64,000 nucleotides of DNA, from NCBI RefSeq assembly GCF_045037415.1, contig NZ_CP173438.1. One strand, written 5' to 3'. Source of the stretch: Escherichia coli. Its GTDB lineage: Bacteria > Pseudomonadota > Gammaproteobacteria > Enterobacterales > Enterobacteriaceae. The notes beneath the pieces were generated by a model. The model was not told the DNA's origin. It did no database searches and worked only from the letters and a program-made list of their open reading frames with translations. Numbering within the stretch: the stretch's first letter is position 1; every line of letters begins with the position of its first letter. Below, piece after piece: positions 28,579 to 55,087 of this stretch. The translations under genes were made by a program, and so were the position numbers.

Positions 28579-29142
<564 letters not shown>

Positions 29143-29181
29143 TCTGATTCGGGCGCGGTTCTCGCGCCCGTTATTAACAGG

Positions 29182-32979: not shown

Positions 32980-32981
32980 CC

Positions 32982-37330: not shown

Positions 37331-37811
37331 AGAGATAGCAGGTTTCCAGACCTCCCCGAAGGCGCAAGTACAGGCAGCGTTTGAAGAAATTGCCCGGCGT
37401 TCGATGCACGATCTCTCTTTTCTGCATCCCTCAATGCCGGTGTATGTTTCTGACTTTACGCTGTTCGAAGGTCAGTGGACGGGGTGTGTGATCACCCCGT
37501 GGATGCTGAGTGCAGTTATCTTCCCCGGCCCGGATCAACTCTGGCCGCTGCGCAAAGTGAGTGAAAAAATTGGTCTGCAACTGCCGTATGGCACTATGAC
37601 CTTTACCGTTGGCGAACTGGACAGTGTTTCTCAATATCTCTCCTGTTCGCTGATGTCACCGCTTTCGCATAGCATGTCGATTGAAGAGGGCCAACGCCTG
37701 ACGGATGACTGCGCGCGGATGATCCTTTCGCTACCGGTCGCTAATCCGGATGTACCACACGCAGGGCGTCGCGCCCTGCTGTTTGGTCGCAGGAGTGGCG
37801 AAAATGCATGA
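37323..37811 (+). CDS. hybE: Hydrogenase 2-specific chaperone
   Basis: Track ORF 37248..37811; preferred start ATG at 37323 (MTEEIAGFQTSP...), 162 aa. Confidence 0.9.
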   Translation: MTEEIAGFQTSPKAQVQAAFEEIARRSMHDLSFLHPSMPVYVSDFTLFEGQWTGCVITPWMLSAVIFPGPDQLWPLRKVSEKIGLQLPYGTMTFTVGELDSVSQYLSCSLMSPLSHSMSIEEGQRLTDDCARMILSLPVANPDVPHAGRRALLFGRRSGENA

Positions 37812-38145
37812 GTTGTCGCTTTGCCAGAGCGCCGTTGAAATTATCCAACGGCAGGCGGAGCAGCACGATGTTAAGCGCGTCACCGCCGTGTGGCTGGAAA
37901 TTGGCGCGCTCTCCTGCGTTGAGGAGAGCGCCGTCCGTTTTAGTTTTGAAATTGTCTGCCACGGAACGGTGGCGCAAGGGTGCGATTTACATATCGTCTA
38001 TAAACCCGCCCAGGCCTGGTGCTGGGATTGCAGCCAGGTGGTGGAGATTCATCAGCACGATGCGCAGTGTCCGCTCTGTCATGGCGAGCGGTTGCGTGTC
38101 GATACCGGCGATTCGCTGATCGTCAAAAGTATTGAAGTTGAATAA
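37804..38145 (+). CDS. hybF: Hydrogenase nickel-incorporation protein (HypA paralog)
   Basis: Track ORF 37750..38145; preferred start ATG at 37804 (MHELSLCQSAVEII...), 113 aa with the C-terminal CxxC...CxxC zinc motif. Confidence 0.92.
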   Translation: MHELSLCQSAVEIIQRQAEQHDVKRVTAVWLEIGALSCVEESAVRFSFEIVCHGTVAQGCDLHIVYKPAQAWCWDCSQVVEIHQHDAQCPLCHGERLRVDTGDSLIVKSIEVE

Positions 38146-38157
38146 CTGGAGTTAACA

Positions 38158-38406
38158 ATGTGTATTGGCGTTCCAGGCCAGGTGCTGGCTGTCGGTGAAG
38201 ATATTCACCAGCTTGCGCAGGTTGAAGTATGTGGTATCAAGCGCGACGTGAATATCGCCCTGATTTGTGAAGGTAACCCTGCCGATCTGCTGGGCCAGTG
38301 GGTGCTGGTACACGTCGGATTTGCCATGAGCATCATCGACGAAGATGAAGCCAAAGCCACATTAGACGCACTGCGCCAAATGGATTACGACATTACCAGC
38401 GCGTGA
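38158..38406 (+). CDS. hybG: Hydrogenase maturation factor (HypC paralog)
   Basis: 82-aa ORF starting MCIGVPGQV..., the HypC-family N-terminal Cys signature. Confidence 0.93.
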
Positions 38407-38414
38407 TGATTAAA

Positions 38415-38447
38415 GCCGGATGCGGCGTAAATGCTTTATCCGGCTAC
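38415..38447. repeat. REP (repetitive extragenic palindrome) element downstream of hybG
   Basis: GCCGGATGCGGCGTAAATGCTTTATCCGGCTAC closely matches the enterobacterial REP consensus. Confidence 0.75.
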
Positions 38448-38475
38448 ATAGCGATAAGCCTGCCAATGTTGCGAC

Positions 38476-39342
38476 TTACCCCTGACGCTTATCTTCCGTA
38501 TTCGTCTCGAAATCACTGGCGTCATGGCGCTCATGCAACTGCTCGTTCAGCGGCCCGTTGGTGCGGTTAACAATACGCCCACGCTTCACCGCCGGACGTT
38601 CGCCCACTTCTTTCGCCCAGCGTTGCACGTGCTTATAACTGCCCGCATCCAGAAACTCTGCGGCATCATACACGCCGCCTAACACCACGTTGCCAAACCA
38701 CGGCCAGATCGCCATATCCGCAATGGTGTACTCATCGCCCGCAACAAACTTGTGCTGCGCCAGTTGCTTATCCAGCACGTCGAGCAGGCGCTTGGCTTCC
38801 ATGGTAAAGCGGTTGATGGCGTACTCAATTTTCACCGGCGCGTAATGGTAAAAGTGACCAAAACCACCGCCGAGGAACGGTGCCGCGCCCTGTAACCAGA
38901 ACAGCCAGTTCATCGTTTCAGTACGCTTTGCCAAATCCTGCGGCAGGAAGTAGCCAAATTTCTCCGCCAGATAAAGCAGAATCGATCCAGACTCAAACAC
39001 GCGGATCGGTGGATTATGGGTATGGTCGCGCAGCGCCGGGATCTTCGAGTTTGGGTTCACTTCGACAAAGCCGCTGGAGAATTGATCGCCATCGCCAATA
39101 CGAATCAGCCAGGCGTCGTACTCTGCACCAGTAACGCCCAGTGCCAGCAGCTCCTCAAGCATAATCGTTACTTTCTGACCGTTCGGCGTTCCCAGCGAAT
39201 AAAGTTGCAATGGATGTTTGCCCACCGGCAGCGTTTTTTCATGCGTCGGACCAGAAACCGGGCGATTGATACTGGCGAACGCGCCGCCAGCGGATTTATC
39301 CCACGTCCAGACTTTCGCGGGCTGATAAGTATTGTCTGTCAT
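38476..39342 (-). CDS. yghU: Nu-class glutathione S-transferase-like disulfide reductase YghU
   Basis: Track ORF 38476..39390; preferred start ATG at 39342 (MTDNTYQPAKVWTWDKSAGG...), 288 aa. Confidence 0.9.
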   Translation of the reverse strand: MTDNTYQPAKVWTWDKSAGGAFASINRPVSGPTHEKTLPVGKHPLQLYSLGTPNGQKVTIMLEELLALGVTGAEYDAWLIRIGDGDQFSSGFVEVNPNSKIPALRDHTHNPPIRVFESGSILLYLAEKFGYFLPQDLAKRTETMNWLFWLQGAAPFLGGGFGHFYHYAPVKIEYAINRFTMEAKRLLDVLDKQLAQHKFVAGDEYTIADMAIWPWFGNVVLGGVYDAAEFLDAGSYKHVQRWAKEVGERPAVKRGRIVNRTNGPLNEQLHERHDASDFETNTEDKRQG

Positions 39343-39546
39343 AGTGAGTTGCCTTCTGAGTGGTAGTGTTGAAGCAGTGTAGCAGGTCACTTGCTGTACA
39401 GAATGTGAATTTTTTAACCCTTTGCGCCAGCCGCTGCGATGAGGTGTATGATTAGTCTGACCTCTGTCCGGTTAATGTCGCTGAGCAGGTAATCAGAGCA
39501 CAACAATTACGCCAACTGCTTAGGTTGTATTGTTAAAGGTAAAGTG

Positions 39547-41406
39547 ATGAGCAAAGGAACGACCAGCCAGGATGCCCCGTTCGGGACATTATTGGGCTAC
39601 GCCCCAGGTGGGGTAGCAATCTACTCTTCAGATTACAGTTCTCTCGATCCGCAGGAATACGAAGATGACGCCGTATTCCGTAGCTATATCGACGATGAAT
39701 ATATGGGCCACAAATGGCAATGCGTTGAATTTGCTCGCCGTTTTCTCTTTCTGAACTACGGTGTAGTCTTCACTGACGTGGGTATGGCATGGGAGATTTT
39801 CTCACTGCGCTTCCTGCGTGAAGTGGTCAATGACAACATCCTGCCATTGCAGGCATTTCCTAACGGTTCGCCGCGTGCACCGGTAGCGGGGGCGCTTCTT
39901 ATCTGGGATAAAGGCGGTGAATTTAAAGACACTGGCCATGTCGCCATCATTACCCAATTGCATGGCAACAAAGTCCGTATTGCGGAACAGAACGTGATTC
40001 ATACCCCGTTGCCGCAAGGGCAACAGTGGACACGCGAGCTGGAGATGGTGGTCGAAAACGGCGGCTATACCCTGAAAGACACCTTCGATGACACCACTAT
40101 TCTGGGCTGGATGATCCAGACGGAAGATACCGAATACAGCTTGCCACAGCCGGAAATTGCAGGCGAACTGCTGAAAATCAGCGGGGCGCGTCTGGAAAAC
40201 AAAGGCCAGTTTGACGGTAAATGGCTGGATGAAAAAGATCCGCTGCAAAACGCCTATGTACAGGCCAACGGCCAGGTGATCAATCAGGATCCGTATCATT
40301 ACTACACCATTACCGAGAGTGCCGAGCAGGAGCTGATTAAAGCCACCAACGAGCTGCACCTGATGTATCTTCACGCCACCGACAAGGTGCTGAAAGATGA
40401 CAACCTGCTGGCGCTGTTTGACATTCCGAAAATCCTCTGGCCACGTTTGCGTCTCTCCTGGCAGCGTCGCCGTCATCATATGATCACTGGTCGTATGGAT
40501 TTCTGCATGGATGAACGTGGCCTGAAAGTCTACGAATACAACGCCGATTCTGCCTCCTGTCATACCGAAGCGGGCTTGATCCTCGAACGTTGGGCGGAGC
40601 AGGGCTATAAAGGCAACGGCTTCAATCCTGCGGAAGGACTGATTAACGAACTGGCTGGCGCGTGGAAACACAGTCGTGCACGTCCGTTTGTCCATATCAT
40701 GCAGGACAAAGATATCGAGGAAAACTATCACGCGCAGTTTATGGAGCAGGCGCTGCACCAGGCGGGCTTTGAAACGCGTATCTTGCGTGGGTTGGATGAA
40801 CTGGGCTGGGATGCTGCCGGGCAACTGATTGATGGGGAAGGGCGACTGGTTAACTGCGTATGGAAAACCTGGGCGTGGGAAACGGCATTTGATCAAATCC
40901 GCGAAGTGAGCGACCGTGAATTTGCCGCAGTGCCGATCCGTACCGGGCATCCACAAAATGAAGTGCGTCTTATCGACGTATTGCTGCGCCCGGAAGTGTT
41001 GGTTTTTGAGCCGCTATGGACGGTGATCCCCGGTAACAAAGCGATTCTGCCGATCCTCTGGTCTCTGTTCCCGCACCATCGTTATCTGTTGGATACTGAC
41101 TTCACCGTGAATGATGAGCTGGTGAAAACCGGTTATGCCGTTAAACCGATTGCCGGGCGCTGTGGTAGCAACATTGACCTGGTCAGCCATCATGAAGAGG
41201 TGCTTGATCAGACCAGTGGTAAATTTGCCGAACAGAAAAATATTTACCAGCAACTGTGGTGTTTGCCGAAAGTGGACGGTAAATACATTCAGGTATGTAC
41301 CTTCACCGTTGGCGGCAACTACGGTGGGACGTGTTTGCGCGGTGATGAATCACTGGTCATCAAAAAAGAGAGTGATATTGAACCGTTAATTGTGGTGAAA
41401 AAGTAA
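39547..41406 (+). CDS. gss: Bifunctional glutathionylspermidine synthetase/amidase
   Basis: Track ORF 39544 starts at GTG; ATG at 39547 gives MSKGTTSQDAPFGTLLGY..., 619 aa, N-terminal CHAP amidase plus C-terminal ATP-grasp synthetase. Confidence 0.95.
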   Translation: MSKGTTSQDAPFGTLLGYAPGGVAIYSSDYSSLDPQEYEDDAVFRSYIDDEYMGHKWQCVEFARRFLFLNYGVVFTDVGMAWEIFSLRFLREVVNDNILPLQAFPNGSPRAPVAGALLIWDKGGEFKDTGHVAIITQLHGNKVRIAEQNVIHTPLPQGQQWTRELEMVVENGGYTLKDTFDDTTILGWMIQTEDTEYSLPQPEIAGELLKISGARLENKGQFDGKWLDEKDPLQNAYVQANGQVINQDPYHYYTITESAEQELIKATNELHLMYLHATDKVLKDDNLLALFDIPKILWPRLRLSWQRRRHHMITGRMDFCMDERGLKVYEYNADSASCHTEAGLILERWAEQGYKGNGFNPAEGLINELAGAWKHSRARPFVHIMQDKDIEENYHAQFMEQALHQAGFETRILRGLDELGWDAAGQLIDGEGRLVNCVWKTWAWETAFDQIREVSDREFAAVPIRTGHPQNEVRLIDVLLRPEVLVFEPLWTVIPGNKAILPILWSLFPHHRYLLDTDFTVNDELVKTGYAVKPIAGRCGSNIDLVSHHEEVLDQTSGKFAEQKNIYQQLWCLPKVDGKYIQVCTFTVGGNYGGTCLRGDESLVIKKESDIEPLIVVKK

Positions 41407-41697
41407 TACATGTTGTAGCAACCCCGTACTGATTATGAAGAATAATCAGTACGGGGATTAATCAAAACATTCAATATTTATATATTCCAATATTTATTCA
41501 TTTTATATGTGAATATATTAACCAGCAGAATACCTGTGTTTTGATTATTTCTAAAGGTTTTGAATGAATGCTTATTGTCTGATACACAAGAAATAACACG
41601 CTTTTTATCGTTAAAAAATGATATTTCACTTTGCCCATGCCGTTAAAGTCACTGATAATGCGTCCGTTCGTAAATTCAAAATGGCGTAATCTAATAT

Positions 41698-43197
41698 ATG
41701 CTAAATTTATTTGTTGGCCTTGATATATACACAGGGCTTTTGTTATTACTTGCTCTGGCATTTGTGTTGTTCTACGAAGCAATCAATGGTTTTCATGACA
41801 CGGCGAATGCGGTGGCAACCGTTATTTATACTCGTGCCATGCAACCACAACTTGCTGTGGTGATGGCGGCATTTTTTAATTTTTTTGGCGTGTTATTGGG
41901 CGGACTTAGCGTTGCCTATGCCATTGTCCATATGTTACCAACCGATTTGTTGCTGAATATGGGGTCAACTCACGGCCTGGCGATGGTCTTTTCCATGCTG
42001 CTGGCGGCGATTATCTGGAACCTGGGAACGTGGTTCTTTGGTTTACCGGCCTCCAGTTCGCACACCTTGATTGGTGCGATTATCGGCATCGGTTTAACCA
42101 ACGCGCTGTTAACCGGCTCATCGGTGATGGATGCGTTAAACCTGCGTGAAGTGACCAAAATTTTCTCCTCGCTGATTGTTTCCCCTATCGTCGGCCTGGT
42201 CATTGCGGGTGGTCTGATTTTCCTGCTGCGCCGTTTCTGGAGCGGGACGAAAAAGCGTGACCGTATTCACCGCATTCCGGAAGATCGCAAAAAGAAAAAA
42301 GGCAAACGTAAGCCGCCATTCTGGACGCGTATTGCGCTGATTGTTTCCGCTGCGGGCGTGGCGTTTTCGCACGGCGCTAACGACGGGCAGAAAGGGATCG
42401 GCCTGGTAATGCTGGTACTGGTGGGGATTGCCCCTGCTGGCTTCGTCGTCAATATGAACGCGTCCGGCTATGAAATTACCCGTACCCGCGATGCCGTCAC
42501 CAACTTCGAACACTACCTGCAACAGCATCCTGAACTGCCGCAGAAGTTGATTGCGATGGAACCTCCATTGCCTGCGGCATCGACTGATGGCGCGCAAGTG
42601 ACGGAGTTTCACTGTCATCCGGCAAATACCTTTGATGCGATTGCGCGCGTTAAAACGATGCTGCCAGGCAATATGGAAAGCTACGAGCCGTTAAGCGTGA
42701 GTCAGCGCAGCCAGCTGCGCCGCATTATGCTGTGCATCTCTGATACTTCCGCGAAGCTGGCGAAACTGCCAGGCGTCAGTAAAGAAGACCAGAACCTGCT
42801 GAAAAAACTGCGCAGCGATATGTTAAGCACCATTGAGTACGCACCGGTATGGATCATCATGGCAGTAGCACTGGCGCTCGGCATTGGCACCATGATTGGC
42901 TGGCGTCGTGTAGCGATGACCATCGGTGAGAAGATTGGTAAGCGCGGCATGACGTATGCGCAAGGCATGGCGGCACAAATGACGGCGGCAGTGTCTATCG
43001 GCCTTGCCAGTTATATTGGGATGCCCGTCTCCACAACACACGTACTCTCATCTGCCGTAGCAGGAACGATGGTGGTGGACGGCGGTGGGTTACAGCGTAA
43101 AACGGTAACCAGCATCCTGATGGCGTGGGTGTTTACTTTACCGGCGGCGATTTTTCTTTCTGGTGGGTTGTACTGGATAGCATTGCAGTTGATTTAA
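41698..43197 (+). CDS. pitB: Low-affinity inorganic phosphate transporter (PiT family)
   Basis: 499-aa [44 protein letters not shown]... with the PiT GANDGQK signature. Confidence 0.95.
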
Positions 43198-43245
43198 CCT
43201 TCCTGAAAATGCCCGGTCCTGGCGATCGGGCATTTCCATTTTTGA

Positions 43246-43938
43246 CTAGTGATAACCACGCGCGGTCATAAAATCCGTAATCGCTTTTTCTGCATCAATC
43301 AGCACCTTTTCCAGTGGCTGATTAGCATCGATATCAACCAGTTGTGCACCGCCAAAGGTTAACTGTGGCGTTATGGCAATCTTCCTCGCCAGCGATTCCC
43401 GTTTATGGTCGGGTTTACGCGCGCAGGCAACTTCAAGGTCAACATTGAGTTTGATGACCAGATCAGGTTTATGGCTCGCCATCCAGTGAAACGCTTTACG
43501 TTCCTGGCTTGCCAGCCATGAGACAAAACGACCACCTTCAATGTTAGGTGGGAACACTGTACCATCGTAAGCGCCAGGAATTTGGTCCTGAGGATAACGG
43601 TCGGTTAGAACAATTAACCCGCGACGACGACAGGCAAGCATATGACGAAAGCGCAGTAAGCGACGGGCGACAAACGCTGTAATTACCAGCGCCGGAACTG
43701 GTCCTGGCAATTTTTTTGCTGTTTTCACCTGATTTCGTTCAATTGTTTTATGTAAGGATTTTCCCATCAACGGTAATTTTGTCACTGAACGACCGACATT
43801 TCCGGCCTGTTTTCCTAAATGAACTCTTTCGGCAGCACCATATTTTTCGACAACGGTAATGAGATGTTCACACACCGTTGACTTGCCTGAACCATCGCTA
43901 CCAATAACGGCAATTAATGGAGGTGTTATTGACTGCAT
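43246..43938 (-). CDS. yghT: P-loop nucleotide/nucleoside-kinase-like protein YghT
   Basis: 230-aa ORF with Walker [10 protein letters not shown], a TDRYPQ motif and a lid-like ARKPDH block; paralogous to the two following genes. Confidence 0.85.
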
Positions 43939-44111
43939 GAATATATCCTTTAATTTAAATATCCATTAAAAATATTTATTTGGTTAATATGTTTTTATGA
44001 AAGCGTAATTCAGGTCAATGTCACAATTAACCATTGTCACAATAAGGTTGAACGGATATTCTGAGCACGGACCACGTAATATTCAATACATTATTTGCTG
44101 CCGGGTTTTTC

Positions 44112-44825
44112 GTGAATCAACGTAATATGTCAATAATTAATTCCACGCCAGTGCGTGTTATTGCCATTGTAGGATGTGATGGTTCAGGTAAATCGACCCT
44201 CACGGCAAGCCTGGTAAATGAACTGGCAGCAACAATGCCAACAGAACACATTTATCTCGGGCAATCGTCCGGGCGAATTGGCGAATGGATTTCACAGCTC
44301 CCTGTTATTGGCGCACCTTTTGGGCGTTATCTGCGAAGTAAAGCGGCACATGTGCACGAAAAGCCCTCCACACCGCCTGGCAATATGACTGCGCTGGTTA
44401 TCTATCTGCTTTCCTGCTGGCGGGCGTATAAGTTTCGCAAAATGTTGTGTAAAAGCCAGCAAGGCTATCTGCTCATCACCGACCGCTACCCGCAGGTTGA
44501 AGTGCCGGGTTTTCGCTTTGATGGCCCGCAATTGGCAAAAACCACGGGCGGTAACGGTTGGATAAAAATGTTAAGGCAGCGCGAGCTGAAGCTGTACCAA
44601 TGGATGGCATCTTATTTGCCCGTATTGTTGATTCGTCTTGGCATTGATGAACAAACCGCGTTTGCGCGTAAACCTGACCACCAACTGGCGGCGTTACAGG
44701 AAAAAATCGCCGTTACGCCGCAACTGACATTTAATGGCGCCAGGATCCTTGAACTGGATGGTCGGCAACCAGCCGATGAAATTCTGCAAGCGTCACTACG
44801 CGCAATTCAAGCTGCGCTTTCCTGA
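44112..44825 (+). CDS. yghS: P-loop kinase-like protein YghS
   Basis: 237-aa ORF starting at GTG (44112); Walker A GCDGSGKST, TDRYPQ, ARKPDH. Confidence 0.85.
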   Translation: MNQRNMSIINSTPVRVIAIVGCDGSGKSTLTASLVNELAATMPTEHIYLGQSSGRIGEWISQLPVIGAPFGRYLRSKAAHVHEKPSTPPGNMTALVIYLLSCWRAYKFRKMLCKSQQGYLLITDRYPQVEVPGFRFDGPQLAKTTGGNGWIKMLRQRELKLYQWMASYLPVLLIRLGIDEQTAFARKPDHQLAALQEKIAVTPQLTFNGARILELDGRQPADEILQASLRAIQAALS

Positions 44826-44856
44826 TCACCAAAATGGATAGGGGATGATTTAACGA

Positions 44857-45630
44857 ATGGACGCACTACAAACACAAACTGTTAATAGTACAACCGCGCC
44901 GCAGCCCAACTACATTCCGGGGCTGATTGCGGTGGTCGGGTGTGATGGCACCGGTAAATCCACACTGACCACCGACCTCGTGAAATCGCTGCAACAACAC
45001 TGGCAAACCGAGCGGCGCTATCTGGGGCTGCTCTCGGGCGAAGACGGCGACAAAATCAAACGATTGCCGTTGGTTGGCGTCTGGCTCGAAAGGCGACTGG
45101 CGGCCAAATCATCGAAAACCCAAAGCATGAAAACCCAAAGCATGAAAACCAAATCTCCAGCGCTATGGGCGGCGGTGATTATGTACTGCTTCTCGCTGCG
45201 AAGAATGGCGAATCTACGCAAGGTTCAGCGACTGGCGCAAAGTGGCGTTCTGGTGGTCAGCGATCGCTTCCCGCAGGCTGAAATTTCGGGCTTTTATTAT
45301 GACGGACCGGGGATCGGCGTCGAACGTGCGACCGGGAAAATCAGCATGTTTCTGGCGCAGCGCGAACGGCGTTTATACCAAAAAATGGCGCAATACCGTC
45401 CTGAATTAATCATTCGTTTGGGGATTGATATTGATACTGCCATCTCCCGCAAGCCTGACCATGACTATGCCGAGCTGCAGGACAAAATCGGCGTCATGTC
45501 GACGATTGGCTATAACGGCACAAAAATTCTTGAGATTGATTCCAGAGCGCCCTACAGCGAAGTGCTGGAACAGGCACAGAAGGCGGTTTCTCTGGTTGCC
45601 ATCGTTTCTGACCGCCGAAGTTTAACTTAA
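44857..45630 (+). CDS. yghR: P-loop kinase-like protein YghR (carries an internal 5-aa tandem repeat)
   Basis: 257-aa ORF MDALQTQTVNSTTAPQPNYIPGLIAVVGCDGTGKST...; SDRFPQ and SRKPDH motifs. Confidence 0.85.
   Translation: MDALQTQTVNSTTAPQPNYIPGLIAVVGCDGTGKSTLTTDLVKSLQQHWQTERRYLGLLSGEDGDKIKRLPLVGVWLERRLAAKSSKTQSMKTQSMKTKSPALWAAVIMYCFSLRRMANLRKVQRLAQSGVLVVSDRFPQAEISGFYYDGPGIGVERATGKISMFLAQRERRLYQKMAQYRPELIIRLGIDIDTAISRKPDHDYAELQDKIGVMSTIGYNGTKILEIDSRAPYSEVLEQAQKAVSLVAIVSDRRSLT
45115..45150 (+). repeat. In-frame 15-bp tandem duplication inside yghR
   Basis: AAAACCCAAAGCATG occurs twice in tandem, followed by a partial third copy (AAAACC), encoding ...KTQSMKTQSMKTKS... Confidence 0.9.
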
Positions 45631-45675
45631 GGCTGGCGGGATACTTTTTACTATCAACGATAAGGTCAGGCTGAA

Positions 45676-47025
45676 TTGGCGGGTTTTAACATCAAACATT
45701 GGTTTGCAGATGGCGCGTTTCGCACCATTATTCGCAATAGCGCCTGGTTAGGCTCCAGTAATGTCGTGAGCGCTTTACTGGGTCTGTTGGCGCTCTCGTG
45801 TGCCGGTAAAGGGATGACGCCCGCCATGTTTGGCGTACTGGTGATTGTACAATCGTACGCCAAGTCGATCAGCGATTTTATTAAGTTTCAGATATGGCAG
45901 CTGGTGGTTCAGTACGGAACACCAGCATTAACCAACAATAATCCGCAGCAATTCCGCAATGTCGTCTCATTTTCCTTCTCGCTGGATATCGTCAGCGGCG
46001 CGGTGGCGATTGTCGGCGGCATTGCCTTACTCCCTTTTCTTTCCCATTCATTAGGTCTGGATGACCAAAGCTTTTGGCTGGCAGCGCTGTATTGCACGCT
46101 CATTCCTTCAATGGCTTCCTCCACGCCGACCGGCATTCTGCGTGCGGTAGATCGCTTCGATCTAATTGCTGTACAGCAAGCGACGAAACCTTTTCTGCGC
46201 GCAGCGGGGAGCGTCGTAGCCTGGTATTTTGACTTTGGTTTTGCGGGTTTTGTTATTGCCTGGTACGTGTCGAATCTGGTTGGCGGCACCATGTACTGGT
46301 GGTTTGCCGCGCGCGAATTACGCCGCAGAAATATCCATAACGCCTTCAAATTGAATCTGTTTGAGTCTGCCCGACACATTAAAGGCGCGTGGAGTTTTGT
46401 CTGGTCAACCAACATTGCCCACTCCATCTGGTCGGCGCGTAACTCGTGCAGCACAGTGCTGGTGGGGATCGTGTTAGGACCCGCTGCCGCCGGGTTATTT
46501 AAAATCGCCATGACATTCTTCGACGCCGCCGGAACGCCAGCGGGTTTACTGGGCAAAAGTTTTTACCCAGAGGTGATGCGTTTAGATCCGCGCACCACCA
46601 GACCGTGGTTGTTAGGCGTGAAGTCAGGTTTACTGGCGGGCGGAATTGGTATTCTGGTGGCGCTCGCGGTGTTGATCGTCGGCAAGCCGCTTATTTCGCT
46701 GGTGTTTGGCGTTAAGTATCTCGAAGCGTATGACCTGATTCAGGTGATGCTGGGCGCAATTGTGATTTCGATGCTGGGCTTCCCACAGGAGTCATTGCTA
46801 TTGATGGCGGGAAAACAGCGCGCTTTTCTCGTGGCGCAAACCATCGCCTCAATCGGCTACATCGTATTGCTGTTCATGTTCTGTCATCTGTTTGGCGTGC
46901 TGGGAGCAGCGTTTGCTTATTTCGGTGGGCAATGTCTGGATGTGGTGCTCTCGTTAATTCCGACCTTAAAGGCATTTTTTCAGCGCCATTCCTTGCTTTA
47001 TAACGCAGCCGGAGAGAAATCCTGA
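45676..47025 (+). CDS. yghQ: MOP-superfamily (Wzx-like) polytopic membrane protein YghQ; start uncertain
   Basis: 449-aa track ORF beginning at TTG 45676 with AAGG 9 nt upstream; highly hydrophobic multi-TM protein. Stop overlaps the start of the next gene (TGATG). Confidence 0.75.
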   Translation: MAGFNIKHWFADGAFRTIIRNSAWLGSSNVVSALLGLLALSCAGKGMTPAMFGVLVIVQSYAKSISDFIKFQIWQLVVQYGTPALTNNNPQQFRNVVSFSFSLDIVSGAVAIVGGIALLPFLSHSLGLDDQSFWLAALYCTLIPSMASSTPTGILRAVDRFDLIAVQQATKPFLRAAGSVVAWYFDFGFAGFVIAWYVSNLVGGTMYWWFAARELRRRNIHNAFKLNLFESARHIKGAWSFVWSTNIAHSIWSARNSCSTVLVGIVLGPAAAGLFKIAMTFFDAAGTPAGLLGKSFYPEVMRLDPRTTRPWLLGVKSGLLAGGIGILVALAVLIVGKPLISLVFGVKYLEAYDLIQVMLGAIVISMLGFPQESLLLMAGKQRAFLVAQTIASIGYIVLLFMFCHLFGVLGAAFAYFGGQCLDVVLSLIPTLKAFFQRHSLLYNAAGEKS

Positions 47026-47849
47026 TGATGAGAAAATATTTCCCGCTTGAGGCGAGCGAGCGTTTATTTGTTGCAGTTGAAGAAGATGATGTCGTTGATG
47101 CACAGGTCAGTTTGCCGCCGACTATCGCACTAAGTTGTACCACCGAAATCATCCATGATAATTACGCGTTATGCCTGCAATTCTGGCTCAATGGCGTCAA
47201 TCGCCAGGAGTTACTGCGTTTAATATGCAAACAGGCCAAAGGCGATGAGCTGACTGCTGATGAGCGCAAACAATTTAAATACATGCGAGCGCGCTACAAG
47301 CACCTGCGTTTTGCGCAACGGCTGTATTTAAAGAAGCATCAGGCCGGATTTTTATTCGGCAAAACGACCGTTTTTTTGGGGCGTTTTCAGGACGGTTTTC
47401 GTAACGGTAAGAAAAATATTGTGTCGTATTACGGCAACTTGTTACGGGTTTATTTAAGCTCTCCGGTCTGGTCGTTGGTGAACTATTCATTACGCCATAG
47501 CCAGTTAGAAAGCGTAAGCGGTTTTATTGCCTATCGGCAAAAGCAAATGCATACCCTGAAAGAGATAATTGCCAAACCGCGACTCACCGGCAGGGAATTT
47601 CATGATGTGCGAAAAATCATCAGCCAGCAGGTTTCTTATTACGACACCTTAAGATCGCTTGATCCTGAAAATAAAGAGGCGTTACAGATTTCCCGCTTCC
47701 TCGCCGCCATTAATGGCCTGATGGGGGATAAACACGACGACATGGTGGCGGATGATATGGAAAACCGCCAGTCGTATGATGCACCGGTGGCGCTGGATAG
47801 CGATATTCGCCAGCGCTTAGAGCTGCTGATTTCGCGTTTTCCGCTATAA
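47025..47849 (+). CDS. Hypothetical soluble protein, no recognisable family
   Basis: 274-aa ORF MMRKYFPLEASERLFVAVEEDD...; coding assignment rests on length, coupling to yghQ (1-nt overlap) and operon context. Confidence 0.6.
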   Translation: MMRKYFPLEASERLFVAVEEDDVVDAQVSLPPTIALSCTTEIIHDNYALCLQFWLNGVNRQELLRLICKQAKGDELTADERKQFKYMRARYKHLRFAQRLYLKKHQAGFLFGKTTVFLGRFQDGFRNGKKNIVSYYGNLLRVYLSSPVWSLVNYSLRHSQLESVSGFIAYRQKQMHTLKEIIAKPRLTGREFHDVRKIISQQVSYYDTLRSLDPENKEALQISRFLAAINGLMGDKHDDMVADDMENRQSYDAPVALDSDIRQRLELLISRFPL

Positions 47850-47857
47850 CCGGAGCA

Positions 47858-48421
47858 ATGATGTCATCTCGTTTGATTATTGCGCTGATTATCATGCTCT
47901 TAGCCCAGGGTGTGCAGGCACACAATTTTGTCACTGGCAAAACGGTTACCCCCGTTTATATCCAGGAAGGCGGCGAGCTGCTTCTGAATAGCGACGACGA
48001 AATTCACTACCAAAAGTGGAACAGCACACAGCTGGCGGGAAAAGTCCGCATTATCCAGTATATCGCCGGGCGTAAGTCGGCGAAGAAAAAGAACTCACTG
48101 TTAATTAAAGCGGTTGAAGCGGCAAACTTTCCGCAGGATCGTTTTCAGCCCACCACCATTGTGAACACCGATGATGCCATCTTTGGTACTGGCTATTTTG
48201 TCGTTGGCAAAATCGAAAAAAATAAACGCCGCTATCCGTGGGCGCAATTCGTTATTGACGGCAATGGACTGGGACGCGTTGCCTGGCGGTTGCCGGAGCA
48301 GAGTTCAACCATTCTGGTGCTGAATAAAGACGGGCAAATTCAGTGGGCAAAGGACGGCAGCCTGACGCCGGAAGAGGTAGATCATGTCATTGCGCTGGCG
48401 CAGAAACTGATCAATGAATAA
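47858..48421 (+). CDS. YtfJ-family periplasmic protein
   Basis: 187-aa ORF with signal peptide MMSSRLIIALIIMLLAQGVQA and GGAG Shine-Dalgarno; body resembles my recollection of YtfJ (QKWNS..LAGKVR..QYIAGR, TTIVNTDDAI, LNKDG..QWAKDG.LTPEEV). Confidence 0.65.
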   Translation: MMSSRLIIALIIMLLAQGVQAHNFVTGKTVTPVYIQEGGELLLNSDDEIHYQKWNSTQLAGKVRIIQYIAGRKSAKKKNSLLIKAVEAANFPQDRFQPTTIVNTDDAIFGTGYFVVGKIEKNKRRYPWAQFVIDGNGLGRVAWRLPEQSSTILVLNKDGQIQWAKDGSLTPEEVDHVIALAQKLINE

Positions 48422-48451
48422 AAAATTCAAAGGATTGAGGGTGTTAGTGAG

Positions 48452-49522
48452 ATGAAGCTGGTTGAACACTACATCATGCGTGGTACGCGCCGTCTGGTGC
48501 TGATTATCGTCGGTTTTCTGATCTTTATTTTCGCCAGCTACTCCGCACAGCGTTATCTGACCGAAGCGGCAAATGGGACCTTAGCTCTTGATGTTGTGCT
48601 GGATATCGTTTTCTACAAAGTGCTGATTGCACTGGAGATGTTGTTACCTGTTGGTCTGTATGTGTCAGTTGGCGTGACGCTAGGGCAGATGTATACCGAC
48701 TCGGAAATTACCGCTATCTCTGCGGCGGGGGGCAATCCGGGACGCTTGTACAAAGCCGTTCTTTATCTGGCGATACCGCTAAGTATTTTTGTCACCCTTC
48801 TGTCGATGTATGGTCGGCCGTGGGCTTATGCGCAGATTTATCAACTGGAGCAACAGTCGCAGTCGGAGCTGGATGTTCGCCAGTTGCGGGCAAAGAAATT
48901 TAACACTAACGATAACGGACGAATGATCCTTTCGCAGACGGTTGATCAGGATAATAATCGCCTGACTGACGCGCTGATTTATACTTCTACTGCCAATCGA
49001 ACCCGCATTTTCCGCGCCCGTTCGGTTGATGTGGTTGACCCATCACCTGAGAAACCGACCGTTATGTTGCATAACGGGACCGCCTATCTTCTCGATCATC
49101 AGGGGCGTGACGACAACGAACAGATCTACCGTAATCTGCAATTACATCTGAATCCGCTGGATCAAAGCCCTAACGTCAAACGCAAAGCAAAATCGGTCAC
49201 GGAGCTGGCGCGCTCAGCCTTTCCTGCCGATCATGCCGAACTGCAATGGCGACAAAGCCGTGGCCTGACAGCATTGTTGATGGCGCTGCTGGCCATTTCA
49301 TTAAGTCGGGTAAAACCGCGGCAAGGGCGATTTTCAACGTTATTGCCACTGACATTGCTGTTTGTTGCCATTTTTTATGGCGGCGACGTCTGCCGTACGC
49401 TGGTGGCTAACGGTGCGATTCCCCTCATTCCTGGTTTGTGGTTAGTACCCGGACTCATGCTAATGGGCCTGCTGATGCTGGTCGCACGCGACTTCTCTTT
49501 GCTGCAGAAATTTTCCCGATGA
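48452..49522 (+). CDS. LptF/LptG-family (YjgP/YjgQ) permease paralog
   Basis: 356-aa ORF: three N-terminal TM segments, a central soluble domain and C-terminal TM segments, the architecture of LPS-export permeases. Confidence 0.75.
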   Translation: MKLVEHYIMRGTRRLVLIIVGFLIFIFASYSAQRYLTEAANGTLALDVVLDIVFYKVLIALEMLLPVGLYVSVGVTLGQMYTDSEITAISAAGGNPGRLYKAVLYLAIPLSIFVTLLSMYGRPWAYAQIYQLEQQSQSELDVRQLRAKKFNTNDNGRMILSQTVDQDNNRLTDALIYTSTANRTRIFRARSVDVVDPSPEKPTVMLHNGTAYLLDHQGRDDNEQIYRNLQLHLNPLDQSPNVKRKAKSVTELARSAFPADHAELQWRQSRGLTALLMALLAISLSRVKPRQGRFSTLLPLTLLFVAIFYGGDVCRTLVANGAIPLIPGLWLVPGLMLMGLLMLVARDFSLLQKFSR

Positions 49523-50598
49523 ATGTTTTCAGTCGCTATTTAATCCGTCATCTCTTTCTCGGTTTTGCCGCCGCCGCAGGGCTATTGCTGCCGCTTTTTA
49601 CCACCTTCAACCTGATTAACGAACTGGATGATGTCAGCCCGGGCGGTTATCGCTGGACTCAGGCGGTGCTGGTGGTGCTGATGACCTTACCGCGTACACT
49701 GGTCGAACTTTCGCCGTTTATCGCATTATTGGGAGGGATTGTTGGCCTGGGGCAGTTATCGAAAAACAGTGAGCTTACCGCCATTCGCAGCACTGGGTTT
49801 TCTATCTTCCGTATTGCACTGGTGGCGCTGGTTGCCGGGATATTGTGGACTGTTTCGTTAGGCGCGATAGATGAGTGGGTGGCGTCGCCATTGCAGCAAC
49901 AGGCGCTGCAAATCAAATCGACTGCCACCGCGTTGGGGGAGGACGATGACATTACCGGCAATATGCTTTGGGCCAGGCGCGGTAATGAATTTGTGACGGT
50001 GAAATCGCTGAACGAGCAGGGCCAGCCTGTGGGCGTGGAGATATTTCATTATCGCGACGATCTCTCGCTCGAATCCTACATTTTTGCACGCAGTGCCTCC
50101 ATTGAAGACGACAAAACGTGGATCCTGCATGGTGTGAATCATAAAAAATGGTTGAATGGCAAAGAAACGCTGGAAACATCAGATAATCTTGCCTGGCAAT
50201 CGGCCTTCACCAGTATGGATCTTGAAGAGTTATCGATGCCGGGGAATACTTTTTCTGTCCGTCAGCTTAATCATTACATCCATTATTTGCAGGAAACCGG
50301 ACAACCCAGCAGCGAATACCGCCTTGCACTGTGGGAAAAACTGGGGCAACCGATCCTGACCCTGGCGATGATTTTGCTGGCTGTGCCGTTCACCTTTAGC
50401 GCCCCGCGCTCGCCAGGGATGGGTAGCCGTCTCGCTGTAGGCGTCATCGTTGGCTTACTCACCTGGATCAGCTATCAAATCATGGTCAATCTGGGATTGT
50501 TATTTGCGTTGAGCGCACCTGTTACCGCGCTCGGTTTACCGGTAGCGTTTGTGTTGGTGGCGTTGAGCCTGGTGTATTGGTATGACAGACAACATTAA
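49519..50598 (+). CDS. LptF/LptG-family (YjgP/YjgQ) permease paralog, LptG-like
   Basis: Track ORF 49438..50598; preferred start ATG at 49519 (MNVFSRYLIRHLFLGFAAAAGLLLPLFTTFNLINELDDV...) overlapping the upstream stop (ATGA). The N-terminus and LSKNSELTAIRSTGFS block parallel E. coli LptG. Confidence 0.78.
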   Translation: MNVFSRYLIRHLFLGFAAAAGLLLPLFTTFNLINELDDVSPGGYRWTQAVLVVLMTLPRTLVELSPFIALLGGIVGLGQLSKNSELTAIRSTGFSIFRIALVALVAGILWTVSLGAIDEWVASPLQQQALQIKSTATALGEDDDITGNMLWARRGNEFVTVKSLNEQGQPVGVEIFHYRDDLSLESYIFARSASIEDDKTWILHGVNHKKWLNGKETLETSDNLAWQSAFTSMDLEELSMPGNTFSVRQLNHYIHYLQETGQPSSEYRLALWEKLGQPILTLAMILLAVPFTFSAPRSPGMGSRLAVGVIVGLLTWISYQIMVNLGLLFALSAPVTALGLPVAFVLVALSLVYWYDRQH

Positions 50599-50632
50599 AC
50601 CCGCCGTGGCGCAACACCACAGCGGGCTCACA
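50599..50632. terminator. Stem-loop between the convergent LptG-like gene and the AOS-like gene
   Basis: CCCGCCGTGG-CGCAACA-CCACAGCGGG, imperfect 10-bp inverted repeat filling the 34-bp gap between two convergent stop codons. Confidence 0.45.
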
Positions 50633-51805
50633 TTACTGCTTCAGAGTAGCAAATGCCTGAATGATGGCATCGATTTGCTCACGACTGTGGGCAGCGTTTA
50701 CGCTACAGCGCAGCAGAGTGATGCCTGCAGGCGCGGCAGGTGGCAGGATAAGATTCACATAAACGCCCAGCGAAATAAGCTCGCGCCAGATGCGTAAACC
50801 TTCCTCTTTCGAACCGATTATTACTGGCACTACCGGGCTAATATGTGAACTTAACTCATAACCCAGTTTTTGCAGACCGTCATACAGATGGTTGGCGTTA
50901 TCCATCAGTTTTTGCCGCAGCTCTGGTTGTGTGGCAATGGTTCTTAACGACGAGCGCACGGTCGCAATGCAGGACGGAGAAGGAGAGGCGGTAAAAATAT
51001 ACGGGCGGCTGCCGTAGCGCAGCACTTCCATCGCTTCCGAACCGACAGCAAAACCGCCAATCGAGGCCAGACTTTTACTGAAAGTACCAACGATAATATC
51101 CACATCATCTTCAACGCCAACGGCTTCAGCCAGTCCGCGCCCCGTTGCGCCTAACACGCCAAACGAATGCGCTTCATCGACAATCAAATAACCACCGAGA
51201 CGACGTTTGATATCAACAATTTCCGCTAACGGCGCAACGTCACCGAGCATGCTGTAGATGCCCTCAACGATGATAATCGCCTCTTTCGCCCGTTCACCGA
51301 GGCGAACCATGCGCCGTTCCAGATCTTTAGCATCGTTATGGCGGAAACGAATAATTTCTGCGCCACCGAGAGAACAGGCGTCATAAATACTGGCGTGGCT
51401 GTCGGCATCCAGTAACACCACGGCGTTATGGTCGGCAAGTGCGCTGATGACGCCTAAATTAGCGGTATAACCGGTTGAAAAAACGATAGCGGTAGGGCGA
51501 TTGAAAAACTCGGCAATCTCTTTCTCTAACGCCAGGTGCGGCGCATAACTGCCGTTTGCCATACGAGAACCGGTGGTGCCGGTGCCTTGGGCCGCTAACG
51601 CTGCCTGACCTTCGGCGATGGCATCATGATTAAAGGTTAAACCGAGATAATTATTGGTCCCGGCCAGAATCACTTTTTTATTGCCGATCCGACCTTCGGT
51701 GGCGGAATACACTTCATCAATACAGGTGCCAAACGGTGTTAACCCGTTGTCACTAAATTGCAGTCGCTCGCCAGCAAGGCGCGCATATTTATCGTATAGC
51801 CCCAT
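50633..51805 (-). CDS. PLP-dependent alpha-oxoamine synthase (serine palmitoyltransferase / BioF / Kbl family)
   Basis: 390-aa ORF with VDEAHSFG and the PLP-lysine block GTFSKS; start ATG overlaps the ACP stop (TAATG). Confidence 0.85.
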   Translation of the reverse strand: MGLYDKYARLAGERLQFSDNGLTPFGTCIDEVYSATEGRIGNKKVILAGTNNYLGLTFNHDAIAEGQAALAAQGTGTTGSRMANGSYAPHLALEKEIAEFFNRPTAIVFSTGYTANLGVISALADHNAVVLLDADSHASIYDACSLGGAEIIRFRHNDAKDLERRMVRLGERAKEAIIIVEGIYSMLGDVAPLAEIVDIKRRLGGYLIVDEAHSFGVLGATGRGLAEAVGVEDDVDIIVGTFSKSLASIGGFAVGSEAMEVLRYGSRPYIFTASPSPSCIATVRSSLRTIATQPELRQKLMDNANHLYDGLQKLGYELSSHISPVVPVIIGSKEEGLRIWRELISLGVYVNLILPPAAPAGITLLRCSVNAAHSREQIDAIIQAFATLKQ

Positions 51806-52053
51806 TATTTATTCTCCAGCCATGGAAGTAGAGTTTCCATTAATTGCGCAGGGGTTTTGACATCCAGCAGAATATTAATAGGAATGGAAATATCGAATCT
51901 GTCTTCCAGCATCATTAAGAGATCCATCACTTTGATCGACTCCAGGCCAAGATCGTTGACGAGATCGCTGTCGGGCTTAATTTCCACACCGTTTTCGACC
52001 AAATCCTGTAAACAGGAAAGGATGTAATCCATTACTATTTCACGATTTACCAT
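51805..52053 (-). CDS. Acyl carrier protein
   Basis: 82-aa acidic protein with a phosphopantetheine-attachment-like DLGLESI motif. Confidence 0.75.
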   Translation of the reverse strand: MVNREIVMDYILSCLQDLVENGVEIKPDSDLVNDLGLESIKVMDLLMMLEDRFDISIPINILLDVKTPAQLMETLLPWLENK

Positions 52054-52084
52054 AGAAACGTTAACACACCTTTAAACAAGACAA

Positions 52085-52999
52085 TCAAAATAGCCCGTTG
52101 CGTAATGCGTGTTCCAGGCTAATCCCGGGAAACCAATTAATATCTTCAGAAATACGGTTATTACTTGCCGACCAGTCGGCATGGGTTAATTCACGGATTT
52201 TCGAACGAGTCAGCATCGGTTCTTTACCCGCCAGACGGCTCAACGCGGTACTGATATCCGCAAGGCAGGTGAGTAGCGGCAGAGGAATACCGACCATCCG
52301 CACGGAACCACAGCGGACATCGGCAACAAGCTGTTGGACACGTTGCCAGTCATAGCCTCCGGCGACGCCATCGCATAATTCATAGGTTTGCGTCTGTACA
52401 GTTTCGGCGCTTAACCACTGACCCACTGCTTGCGCAAAATCGGTGACGTGCAGGAAAGAGAGCTGTGTCTCTGGCGTGCCAAGTCGTGGCAGCAGACCGC
52501 GCAGCATCCAGTCAAACAGCGGTTTTAACTCTTTATCGCCGGGACCATACACGGCTGTCGGGCGAAAAACGCCCAACGTAATTGCGTCAGCCATTGCAGT
52601 CAGCTGTTGTTCGGCGACGTGTTTGGAATTTGCGTACCAGGAGAGTTCGGGATGGCGCGCCGCCAGCGAAGAGATAAACAGAAATCGTTGGCAAAAGCCG
52701 CTCTCTTTTGCCGCTTGCATCAGGCGCAGGCTGCCGTCAACGTTGCAGCGGGTAAAAATCTCTTCTTTGTGCCCGCGCACTTGCCCGGCGCAATGGACCA
52801 CCGCGCTGGCTCCGGTAACCAGTTCGCTAAGCGAATGTGTATCTTCCAGCGAACCGCGCACCCAAGTGAGATTATCATTGACGTGAGCGCGGGCAGTACG
52901 CGTCAATGCGCGAACGTGAAAGCCGCGGGCGAGCAGGTTATCAATAATATATTTACCGATAAACCCGGTAGCGCCCGTCACCGCGACAGTTTGATTCAT
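52085..52999 (-). CDS. NAD(P)-dependent epimerase/dehydratase-family (extended SDR) reductase
   Basis: 304-aa ORF with Rossmann VTGATGFIG and catalytic YxxxK (YANSK); start ATG overlaps the upstream stop (ATGA). Confidence 0.82.
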   Translation of the reverse strand: MNQTVAVTGATGFIGKYIIDNLLARGFHVRALTRTARAHVNDNLTWVRGSLEDTHSLSELVTGASAVVHCAGQVRGHKEEIFTRCNVDGSLRLMQAAKESGFCQRFLFISSLAARHPELSWYANSKHVAEQQLTAMADAITLGVFRPTAVYGPGDKELKPLFDWMLRGLLPRLGTPETQLSFLHVTDFAQAVGQWLSAETVQTQTYELCDGVAGGYDWQRVQQLVADVRCGSVRMVGIPLPLLTCLADISTALSRLAGKEPMLTRSKIRELTHADWSASNNRISEDINWFPGISLEHALRNGLF

Positions 53000-54744
53000 G
53001 CCAGGGACTCCTGCACATGAAGACTGGCAGCATAAGCCTTCTGATAACGTTTTTTCGCTTCCGCACGGGCAGGCTTGCCGGAGGATGTTCGGGGAATACT
53101 GTGGGGCGGCAACAGATCGATATCCGCGGTAACGCCAAATTCGCTTTGGATCCGTGCTGCCAGCGCGTGGATAAGCTGCCCGCGACGTTCTTCATCGCTG
53201 ATCCGACACTGGATCTGCAAAATGATTTTTTCCTGGGCGGTAACAAAAGCAATCGCATCGCCAGAATGAATTTCCGGTTCCTGTTCCGCAATATATTCAA
53301 TATCCTGCGGCCAGATATTACGGCCACGAATAATAATCAGATCTTTAATGCGTCCGGTGACATACAGATAACCGTCCAGCAGATAACCGAGGTCGCCGGT
53401 GTCTAACCAGCCCGTCGCGGCAATCTCGTCTTGTGAAATCTGGTCGCCAAAGTAACCGCTCATCAGGCTAGGGCCGGAGATGCAAATATGGCCTACCACA
53501 CGTTCCGCGACAGGTATACCTGCTTCATTGCGGATTTCAATGCCATGTTCCGGCAACGCTTTACCGCAGTTGACGAAAGTCGATACGGCGCGTGTTTCAG
53601 CACCCGGCGCGACGGCTTTACCCTGGTATTCGAGGATGTCGCGATCCACTTCGTTAACCACAACCCCGGAAGCTTCATCAGAGAAGCTGACAGCCAGCGC
53701 ATTTTCTGCCAGTCCGTAGCACGGCATGAAAGTTTTATCGTCAAAGTTGACCTGACGGAAACATTCAGCGAATTGATGGAGTTGTTCTGCGGAGATGGGT
53801 TCTGCACCAATACCAGCGACGCGCCAGCAGGAAAGATCCAGTTCAGCGAGATCTTTTTCATTCACGCGGCGCTGGCACAATTCATAGCCAAACGGCGGCG
53901 CAACGGAAACGGTGCCGCGATTTTTACTGATCAATTTAAGCCATTGCAGAGGACGCATGGCAAAATCCTGAGTGCGCAAATAATCTACTGAAAGCTGCGT
54001 GGCGACGGGGGTCAGGAGAAAGCCGACCAGTCCCATATCATGGTAGAAAGGCAGCCAGGAGACGCAGCGGTCGCCAGGGCGTAATTTAATCCCATCGTGG
54101 CTTATAGCACGTAGATTAGCCATCACTTCGCGGTGAGTAATGATAACGCCACGGGGAAAACGGGTGCTGCCGGAGGTGTACTGGAGGTAGGCGATATCGT
54201 TTGGAACTGGACGTTGAAGCGCAACATCGGCTTCCGGTAATGCCTTAAACCAGGCGTGGCTTAAAACATGTAATTCGGGATTGTTATGCGTCGCGGCATT
54301 GACCAGTGGCAACCACTCATCACCAGTGATAATGGCTGCGGGCTGGCAACTTGCCAGTAACCCCTGCAGTTTGGCGCTCCAGGAATCCCGCTGACCGACG
54401 CCCATTGGAATCGCCAACGGGACGGCGACTAAGCCGGCATACTGGCAGGCAAAAAAAGCCTCTACAAACCCGCTACTCGTTTCGGCAATCAGTGCCACGC
54501 GATCGCCTTTTTTCAGGTTCAGCGATAACAACCGCTTCGCACCAGCTTCGGCACGCGCTTTTAACGTCTGATATTCCAGTTGATCTTCAAGTTGGCAACG
54601 TCTGTCATAAAAATTCATTCCAGCGCTACTCAGAGCGGCATAGTCCAAAGCATCAACCAGCGTTGGAAAATCGGCATAGCGCATAGGTAGGGAATGCGTA
54701 AAGATTTTATTAGACATATACACCACGAAAAAATTGGATATCAA
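52996..54744 (-). CDS. Fatty acyl-AMP ligase / acyl-ACP synthetase (AMP-dependent synthetase family); start uncertain
   Basis: Track ORF starts at TTG 54744; an in-frame ATG at 54717 (MSNKIF...) is the alternative. AMP-binding core YTSGSTRFPRGV and a C-terminal ...SGKPAR... block. Confidence 0.82.
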   Translation of the reverse strand: MISNFFVVYMSNKIFTHSLPMRYADFPTLVDALDYAALSSAGMNFYDRRCQLEDQLEYQTLKARAEAGAKRLLSLNLKKGDRVALIAETSSGFVEAFFACQYAGLVAVPLAIPMGVGQRDSWSAKLQGLLASCQPAAIITGDEWLPLVNAATHNNPELHVLSHAWFKALPEADVALQRPVPNDIAYLQYTSGSTRFPRGVIITHREVMANLRAISHDGIKLRPGDRCVSWLPFYHDMGLVGFLLTPVATQLSVDYLRTQDFAMRPLQWLKLISKNRGTVSVAPPFGYELCQRRVNEKDLAELDLSCWRVAGIGAEPISAEQLHQFAECFRQVNFDDKTFMPCYGLAENALAVSFSDEASGVVVNEVDRDILEYQGKAVAPGAETRAVSTFVNCGKALPEHGIEIRNEAGIPVAERVVGHICISGPSLMSGYFGDQISQDEIAATGWLDTGDLGYLLDGYLYVTGRIKDLIIIRGRNIWPQDIEYIAEQEPEIHSGDAIAFVTAQEKIILQIQCRISDEERRGQLIHALAARIQSEFGVTADIDLLPPHSIPRTSSGKPARAEAKKRYQKAYAASLHVQESLA

Positions 54745-55087
54745 AAATAAAATGACAATAATGCGGTGGATTATATAGGCATAAAAGATAAATGAGATAG
54801 TATTTTCATCGGTGCGATATTGAACATTGATTTAAATAATAGGTTTTGTTTTGTTGTTTTTATTGTGAATGATATTTGATTTATGAATGTATTAAGAATG
54901 AACCTTGTCTGACCGCATTAAATCGCTAAAAGGCATTGTGGCGCTTCTTCGTTGGCTGTGATCTTATCGTAATCATTAATAAATAATATTTATTCTTATT
55001 TTGTATTCATGGTGTTGATTATTAAGATGCCGTTCGTTGCTGTTGCAACCTGTTTTTCATCGTTAATTATTTGTTATCCACAGAGAT
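54745..55087. promoter_or_regulatory. AT-rich divergent intergenic region between the lipid-synthesis operon and yghO
   Basis: ~340 bp of visibly AT-rich sequence with A/T tracts (e.g. TTTTGTTTTGTTGTTTTTATTGTGAATGATATTTGATTTATGAATG) between two divergent starts. Confidence 0.4.

Follow-up and report, generated by a model that had tools for sequence, protein, structure and literature searches.

The yghR gene of Escherichia coli contains a low-copy, in-frame coding tandem repeat with a 15-bp unit, which occurs in one to four perfect copies. The repeat has very probably been made, and subsequently changed, by replication slippage (slipped-strand mispairing). The reading frame is kept in every case; hence, the outcome is a protein length polymorphism rather than an on/off switch. 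Alleles with more than one unit descend from a single duplication, and unit number varies even between members of one clone, ST131.

The repeat was recognised in a window of 64,000 nucleotides, by which the whole stretch of DNA analysed is meant; features are listed in Table 1. An exact 15-bp duplication of AAAACCCAAAGCATG in yghR (45115–45129 and again 45130–45144) is followed by AAAACC (45145–45150). The first-pass annotation, made from the sequence alone, had described a 15-bp in-frame, head-to-tail duplication with a partial third unit, and this is what is seen at 45114–45150 (two units plus 7 bp). Tandem Repeats Finder (TRF) calls the repeat at 45104–45150, with a period of 15, 3.1 copies and 93% matches; its count includes a degenerate, older copy upstream. 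The tract lies within the yghR ORF reading ...AAKSSKTQSMKTQSMKTKSPALW..., and it encodes the peptide KTQSM-KTQSM-KTKS; the translation spanning the repeat is ...LAAKSSKTQSMKTQSMKTKSPALW.... No second exact tandem duplication with a unit of 10–30 bp is present in the 64-kb window, and an exact 15+15 repeat is expected by chance about 6e-5 times in 64 kb (our own estimate, 64,000 x 4^-15).

Table 1. Features of the yghR region in the window. Coordinates marked ~ were transferred from aligned loci.
Feature	Position	Strand	Remarks
yghS	44112–44825	+	yghR paralog directly upstream; without the repeat at the equivalent position (translation, annotation)
yghR ORF, 2-unit allele	44857–45630	+	257 aa, thymidylate-kinase-like P-loop protein
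P-loop codons GCDGTGKST	44938–44964	+	residues 28–36
Degenerate old upstream copy, CCAAATCATCG...	45104–45114	+	codes AKSS; counted in the 3.1 copies of TRF
Exact period-15 tract	45114–45150	+	37 bp, two full units plus 7 bp
Unit 1, AAAACCCAAAGCATG	45115–45129	+	codes KTQSM, residues 87–91
Unit 2, AAAACCCAAAGCATG	45130–45144	+	codes KTQSM, residues 92–96; extra copy relative to K-12
Microhomology GAAAACC, copy 3	45144–45150	+	other copies 45114–45120 and 45129–45135; from alignment of 1-, 2- and 3-unit alleles
yghQ-like flippase ('lipopolysaccharide biosynthesis protein')	45676–47025		from RefSeq records of matching loci
lptF/lptG paralogs (second copies)	~48452–50598		
spt, serine palmitoyltransferase	~50633–51805		
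aasR, fatty acyl-AMP ligase	~52996–54684		
yghO	~55088–56230		

Matching genes are named in RefSeq as 'yghR: nucleoside/nucleotide kinase family protein', 'ATP-binding protein YghR' or 'hypothetical protein', in agreement with the gene identity given at first pass. The yghR gene of K-12 (strain KLY) has one unit, spans 759 bp and encodes 252 aa; on alignment, it is shorter than the gene in the window by exactly one 15-bp unit. The first-pass annotation had set the 257 aa of the window against roughly 252 aa for K-12, and the difference is indeed exactly one 5-aa unit. The papers found on yghR call the protein an uncharacterised ATP-binding protein, and in none of them is the repeat mentioned.

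YghR scores 26.2 bits against the Pfam model PF02223 (Thymidylate_kin), below the cut-off of 27, and 31.2 bits against TIGR00041, far below the cut-off of 83.25. AlphaFold2 models of the 2-unit and 1-unit proteins are of moderate quality (pTM 0.74, mean pLDDT 75–76). All top 50 matches in a Foldseek search of the PDB with the YghR model are thymidylate kinases (E 9e-8 to 7e-6, TMt 0.5–0.67); the best matches of the models have E values of about 1e-7, TM scores of 0.6–0.66 normalised on the target, and 13–17% identity. The models thus predict a thymidylate kinase fold with a P-loop. Like thymidylate kinases (PF02223/TIGR00041), YghR has the P-loop GxxGxGKS/T and an invariant D-R pair (DRF, residues 136–138), which we take to occupy the place of the DR(Y/H/F) motif of dTMP kinases. 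Unlike them, it falls below the cut-offs of both family models, is only 13–17% identical to the solved structures matched, and has a long, conserved linker containing KTQSM; this linker is a predicted coil, and it could not be matched to any element named in thymidylate kinase structures.

The repeat in both models forms a low-pLDDT coil between a short helix (residues 73–82) and a long helix (residues 103–128; numbering of the 2-unit protein). An alignment of 32 orthologs, drawn from Escherichia, Citrobacter, Pseudocitrobacter, Shimwellia, Erwinia, Pantoea, Serratia, Sodalis and Kosakonia, places the KTQSM linker among the best conserved parts of YghR. The conserved linker segment reads RRLAAKSSKTQSM..K.PALWAAL; its AAKSSKTQSM portion is conserved across Enterobacterales, and K, Q and M of the pentapeptide are invariant in all 32 sequences. 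In the P-loop, G28, D30 and G31 through T36 are invariant, while C29 varies and is replaced by S in some orthologs. None of the 31 other aligned orthologs has an insertion or deletion in the linker, and YghR of other Escherichia species, for example E. whittamii, has 252 aa. The repeat had been placed at first pass inside a loop of a P-loop protein. The P-loop is present and the coil appears in both models, but this is not a sloppy loop; it is a strongly conserved linker free of indels in the orthologs. The duplication thus repeats a conserved motif within a linker of otherwise fixed length. Since a tandem duplication keeps the native context at both ends of the linker, this may explain why the insertion is tolerated.

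Directly downstream of the three kinase-like genes yghT-yghS-yghR, an intact gene cluster occupies positions 45676–56230 of the window (coordinates beyond 47025 were transferred from aligned loci). In addition to the genes in Table 1, it comprises genes for a YtfJ-family protein, an acyl carrier protein (acpR) and an epimerase/dehydratase (epi). The genes spt-acpR-epi-aasR-yghO make up the cluster for dihydroceramide that has been characterised in E. coli BL21 (PMC9386255). In K-12, yghQ is truncated and adjoins an IS5.

The distribution of unit numbers was determined by a megablast search of 5,426 complete E. coli genomes with the yghR ORF of the window. The gene is present in 4,624 of these; approximately 4,180 carry one unit, 436 carry two and five carry three. 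Multi-unit alleles were recognised with a 36-nt query that can seed in no allele of fewer than two units (441 genomes matched). A synthetic query, namely the exact 1-unit version of the window allele, gave a 100% match in 15 genomes, including IAI39, CE10, VR50, M1/5 and A1.S1.18; 789-bp spans in four genomes surfaced in the same search. With a full-length 3-unit query, 3-unit alleles were found in 2017_APHA, p11A, p11B, 998 and OW849064 (n = 5), and direct inspection revealed three perfect units and a 262-aa protein. One of the yghR matches, which includes the 2-unit junction, comes from a record that is labelled a plasmid.

Exact sequences on two protein backgrounds were also looked up more widely, in a collection of some 15 billion proteins. 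On the background of the window protein, contigs with one unit and contigs with two units each number at least 1,000, those with three units 106 and those with four units 2; on the JJ1886-type background, there are 870 contigs with two units and 131 with three. Alleles with zero or five units are absent from both backgrounds in this collection. At the DNA level, the 4-unit alleles, including that of assembly GCA_050189685.1, consist of four perfect units and show no mismatch to the window allele; likewise, no mismatch separates the JJ1886-type 3-unit allele from JJ1886, in the gene or in its flanks. The alleles form a series of 759, 774, 789 and 804 bp, encoding 252, 257, 262 and 267 aa with one, two, three and four perfect units, respectively; all are full-length and in frame. 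Copy number changes by whole units only. Cluster members of 255 and 256 aa were considered as partial-unit variants and rejected, being start-site variants or carriers of unrelated indels. Counting units over yghR alleles, as proposed at first pass, therefore reveals genuine variation between one and four perfect units, and the two-copy arrangement is not common to all alleles.

The founding duplication can be traced to a single haplotype. Among the 441 multi-unit genomes, 436 match the window at 99% identity or more across the 116 bp that surround the repeat, and the other five are those with three units; K-12-type alleles, by comparison, differ from the window at 4 of 71 flanking bases. As multi-unit alleles share their immediate flanks, they go back to one initial duplication on a single haplotype. 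In K-12 and M1/5, the 1-unit allele reads GAAAACC-CAAAGCAT-GAAAACC, and thus already contains 7-bp direct repeats, 15 bp apart. Short direct repeats that bracket a unit are a textbook substrate for slippage or microhomology-mediated tandem duplication, and slippage depends on the length of the repeated tract. This length grows with the number of units, from 22 bp to 37 and then 52 bp. A single founding duplication among about 4,600 genomes and, after it, several changes within a clone would fit such a dependence on tract length.

Variation between close relatives was examined in 42 kb of flanking DNA (window 21857–64000). Relative to the window, which has two units, p11A (three units) has 0 substitutions in these flanks and A1.S1.18 (one unit) has 2. 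Since local identity can result from recombination, clonality was also checked at an unlinked region (dnaA-gyrB-...-uhp), which lies at a distance of about 760 kb. In this region, p11A, A1.S1.18, JJ1886 and 2017_APHA differ by 0–3 SNPs in 27–40 kb, and hence belong to one clone. This clone is ST131, because JJ1886 is a reference ST131 strain, and the record of 2017_APHA is labelled O25b:H4-ST131. One, two and three units thus occur within ST131, the 1-unit case being represented by one imperfect assembly; variation within lineages, which the first-pass annotation had put forward as a check, is seen in ST131 relatives that are 0–3 SNPs apart over tens of kilobases. The assembly in question, A1.S1.18, is the sole ST131 genome with one unit. 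It has annotated frameshifts in the core genes hybA, yghO, uhpT, rnpA and yidJ, and differs from the window by 1-bp deletions at 33369 and 55246 and by a 13-bp insertion at 28529. These imperfections weaken the single example of a contraction from two units to one within ST131.

The idea that all genomes with the local haplotype of the window are ST131 was rejected, as typing at the dnaA locus places M1/5 (one unit), 998 (three units) and CU39ES-1 (two units) elsewhere, at 0.5–1.2% divergence from ST131. Because these three belong to other lineages, identity of the local haplotype is no proof of clonality. The yghR region of M1/5 and 998 is almost SNP-free relative to 2017_APHA, and this near-identity despite genome divergence indicates that the region has also been exchanged between lineages. 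A core of about 30 kb (about 30.5–60 kb of the window) is SNP-free among ST131, M1/5 and 998, at a divergence of about 1.1% at the dnaA locus; differences among them are clustered in patches at 21.8–30.5 kb and 60–64 kb. The flanks of VR50 differ by 415 SNPs, and only the core is shared with this genome. The segment around yghR is thus horizontally shared, with clear recombination boundaries.

Three types of DNA background can be distinguished for alleles with three units: window-type (p11A, p11B), JJ1886-type, and a flank haplotype designated 'P' (2017_APHA, 998, OW849064); the 4-unit allele is found on window-type DNA. The duplication is retained in JJ1886-type alleles (about 51 complete genomes, 870 contigs), in which 14 clustered SNPs at positions 459–647 of yghR (window ~45315–45503) give the K-12-type residues Q176, E193 and K216. 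This pattern marks a recombination breakpoint inside JJ1886 yghR, downstream of the repeat. The 'P' haplotype (flanks equivalent to window 26000–46000) carries three units in the genomes named or one unit in M1/5, and its combination with two units was not found among the 5,426 complete genomes. The 'P' group was at one stage regarded as an independent step from two to three units; this was dropped because no 2-unit 'P' form exists there, and independence is now drawn from the window-type and JJ1886-type backgrounds. From the backgrounds of the 3- and 4-unit alleles, at least three unit gains can be deduced after the founding duplication, together with one probable loss (A1.S1.18). The haplotypes also differ further along. 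Just past the 3' end of the window, window-type DNA (p11A, where the region is 43971–46789 of the extracted locus, and A1.S1.18) has an IS4 after glcA, with truncated gspK and gspL, and in this glcA-side region the 'P' haplotype has an intact sslE where window-type DNA has the truncated gspK/gspL. The arrangement on window-type DNA is a lineage-specific disruption of the sslE/type II secretion region.

The course of events that best accounts for these data would begin with the ancestral 1-unit allele, in which GAAAACC occurs twice, 15 bp apart. One misalignment between the two copies would duplicate the intervening 15 bp and so create the 2-unit allele, a step taken a single time, on the haplotype that is typical of ST131 today. 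With the repeated tract extended from 22 to 37 bp, whole units could then have been gained (two to three, three to four) several times on otherwise identical DNA, and one was probably lost again (two to one), also on otherwise identical DNA. Some alleles have in addition passed from lineage to lineage through homologous recombination. Each added unit puts a further KTQSM into the flexible but sequence-conserved linker that joins two helices. Unit number varies only within the allele lineage in which the duplication is already present, and it changes at a low rate, as most clonal relatives have an identical number of units. The term 'slipped-strand-type micro-variable site', used at first pass, is thus apt as far as variability is concerned (one to four units), while slippage is deduced from the alleles, and the variation is slow and restricted to duplication-bearing DNA. 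Unit number itself we assume to be nearly neutral, with the 2-unit allele probably common because ST131 is common. Two observations sit less comfortably with this scheme. The identical 1- and 3-unit haplotypes of M1/5 and 998 mean that some of the differences within ST131 could be recombination imports that left no SNP trace, and the occurrence of the 'P' haplotype with three units or one, but never two, is contrary to a simple stepwise model.

Both observations lend some weight to an account in which homologous recombination has mainly moved pre-existing 1-, 2- and 3-unit alleles between lineages, with only two or three slippage events ever. It would be favoured by the roughly 30 kb around yghR without SNPs among ST131, M1/5 and 998, by the common 3-unit haplotype of 998 (not ST131) and 2017_APHA (ST131), which differ by at most 1 SNP in 42 kb, by the breakpoint inside JJ1886 yghR, and by the two units of CU39ES-1, which is not ST131 either. 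What it has to accommodate, however, is the presence of three units on three backgrounds plus a 4-unit allele, each of which needs either its own gain or an improbably precise short import. Moreover, traceless donors are rare; among about 4,600 genomes, there are the 15 with the exact 1-unit allele and 3 with the P-type 3-unit allele. A predominant role for recombination is thus possible, but on balance rather unlikely. An artefact of sequencing or assembly, in turn, is hardly credible. Assemblers can collapse or expand short tandem repeats, but nothing specific suggests that this happened here, and 436 complete genomes, all independent, have an identical 2-unit tract, which is also on at least 1,000 contigs; three units are found in five genomes and on more than 200 contigs.

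Slippage may also be accepted as the mechanism and a biological role sought for its products. One such proposal holds that unit number is functional, in that YghR activity is tuned or lost as the KTQSM linker is lengthened, and that selection has favoured two units in the pandemic ST131. The invariance of K, Q and M and the fixed linker length in 31 orthologs from many genera speak for it, as do the position of yghR next to the characterised dihydroceramide biosynthesis cluster (PMC9386255) and the near-fixation of the 2-unit allele in a very successful clone. The same features count against near-neutrality; three invariant residues are duplicated and no indel is seen in other genera, so that the insertion might impair or alter YghR. 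Nevertheless, clonal hitch-hiking fully explains the frequency of the 2-unit allele, and this clone also retains gains to three and four units and a likely loss to one, so that the exact number seems to be weakly constrained. The linker is disordered in both AlphaFold2 models, and in the papers found YghR is called an 'uncharacterized ATP-binding protein'. Selection on unit number is accordingly improbable. Slightly more so is its most explicit form, in which the KTQSM count would set the length of a conserved, substrate-contacting linker in a protein encoded beside the dihydroceramide cluster, and the 2-unit form would change or disable an envelope-lipid modification and be selected in ST131, the repeat acting as a slow tuning knob. 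A phase-variable contingency locus that switches yghR on and off might come to mind for a perfect tandem repeat of varying copy number in a coding region. The unit of 15 bp is, however, a multiple of three, with the alleles of 252, 257, 262 and 267 aa all full-length and in frame; there are at most four units, multi-unit genomes nearly always have exactly two (436 of 441), and clonal relatives mostly have one count. Such switching is therefore exceedingly improbable, and slippage that produces in-frame length variants of presumably little consequence is the preferred reading.

The yghR repeat closely resembles low-copy coding VNTRs, such as the in-frame MLVA loci of E. coli. As in these, perfect units are arranged head to tail and differ by whole units among close relatives, the ancestral allele has short direct repeats bracketing the unit, and instability sets in only once a first duplication has lengthened the tract. 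Four features by which VNTRs are recognised are found here, namely perfect head-to-tail copies, whole-unit differences, variation between close relatives and bracketing microhomology. Compared with typical coding VNTRs, the yghR repeat has only one to four units and a low rate of change, and its unit is a conserved motif, not a low-complexity spacer. Judged by the allele ranges of the 15-bp loci CVN003 and CVN004, the repeat appears to be distinct from the standard generic MLVA loci of E. coli (CVN001–CVN017); these two have alleles of 0 or 5–10 in ST131 and others, against 1–4 for yghR. With the contingency loci of Haemophilus, Neisseria and Campylobacter it has a mechanism in common, slippage in a repeat inside an ORF, but frameshifts and on/off switching are absent, and copy number and rate are far lower. 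The alleles of 252–267 aa include no frameshift, and there is no long hypermutable tract with mixed counts.

In the alleles compared, there is no sign of a regulatory or switching role for the repeat, which is a previously unreported example of a well-known and ordinary kind of polymorphism. Taken at face value, it is a small case of the birth of a coding tandem repeat, in which one rare, microhomology-mediated duplication makes a stable site changeable. The unit count is also a cheap marker of the ST131-associated yghR haplotype, with 3- and 4-unit variants marking sub-lineages. Finally, the proteins of 252, 257, 262 and 267 aa constitute a natural allelic series in a conserved linker of the kinase-like YghR, and this series could be useful for finding the function of the protein.
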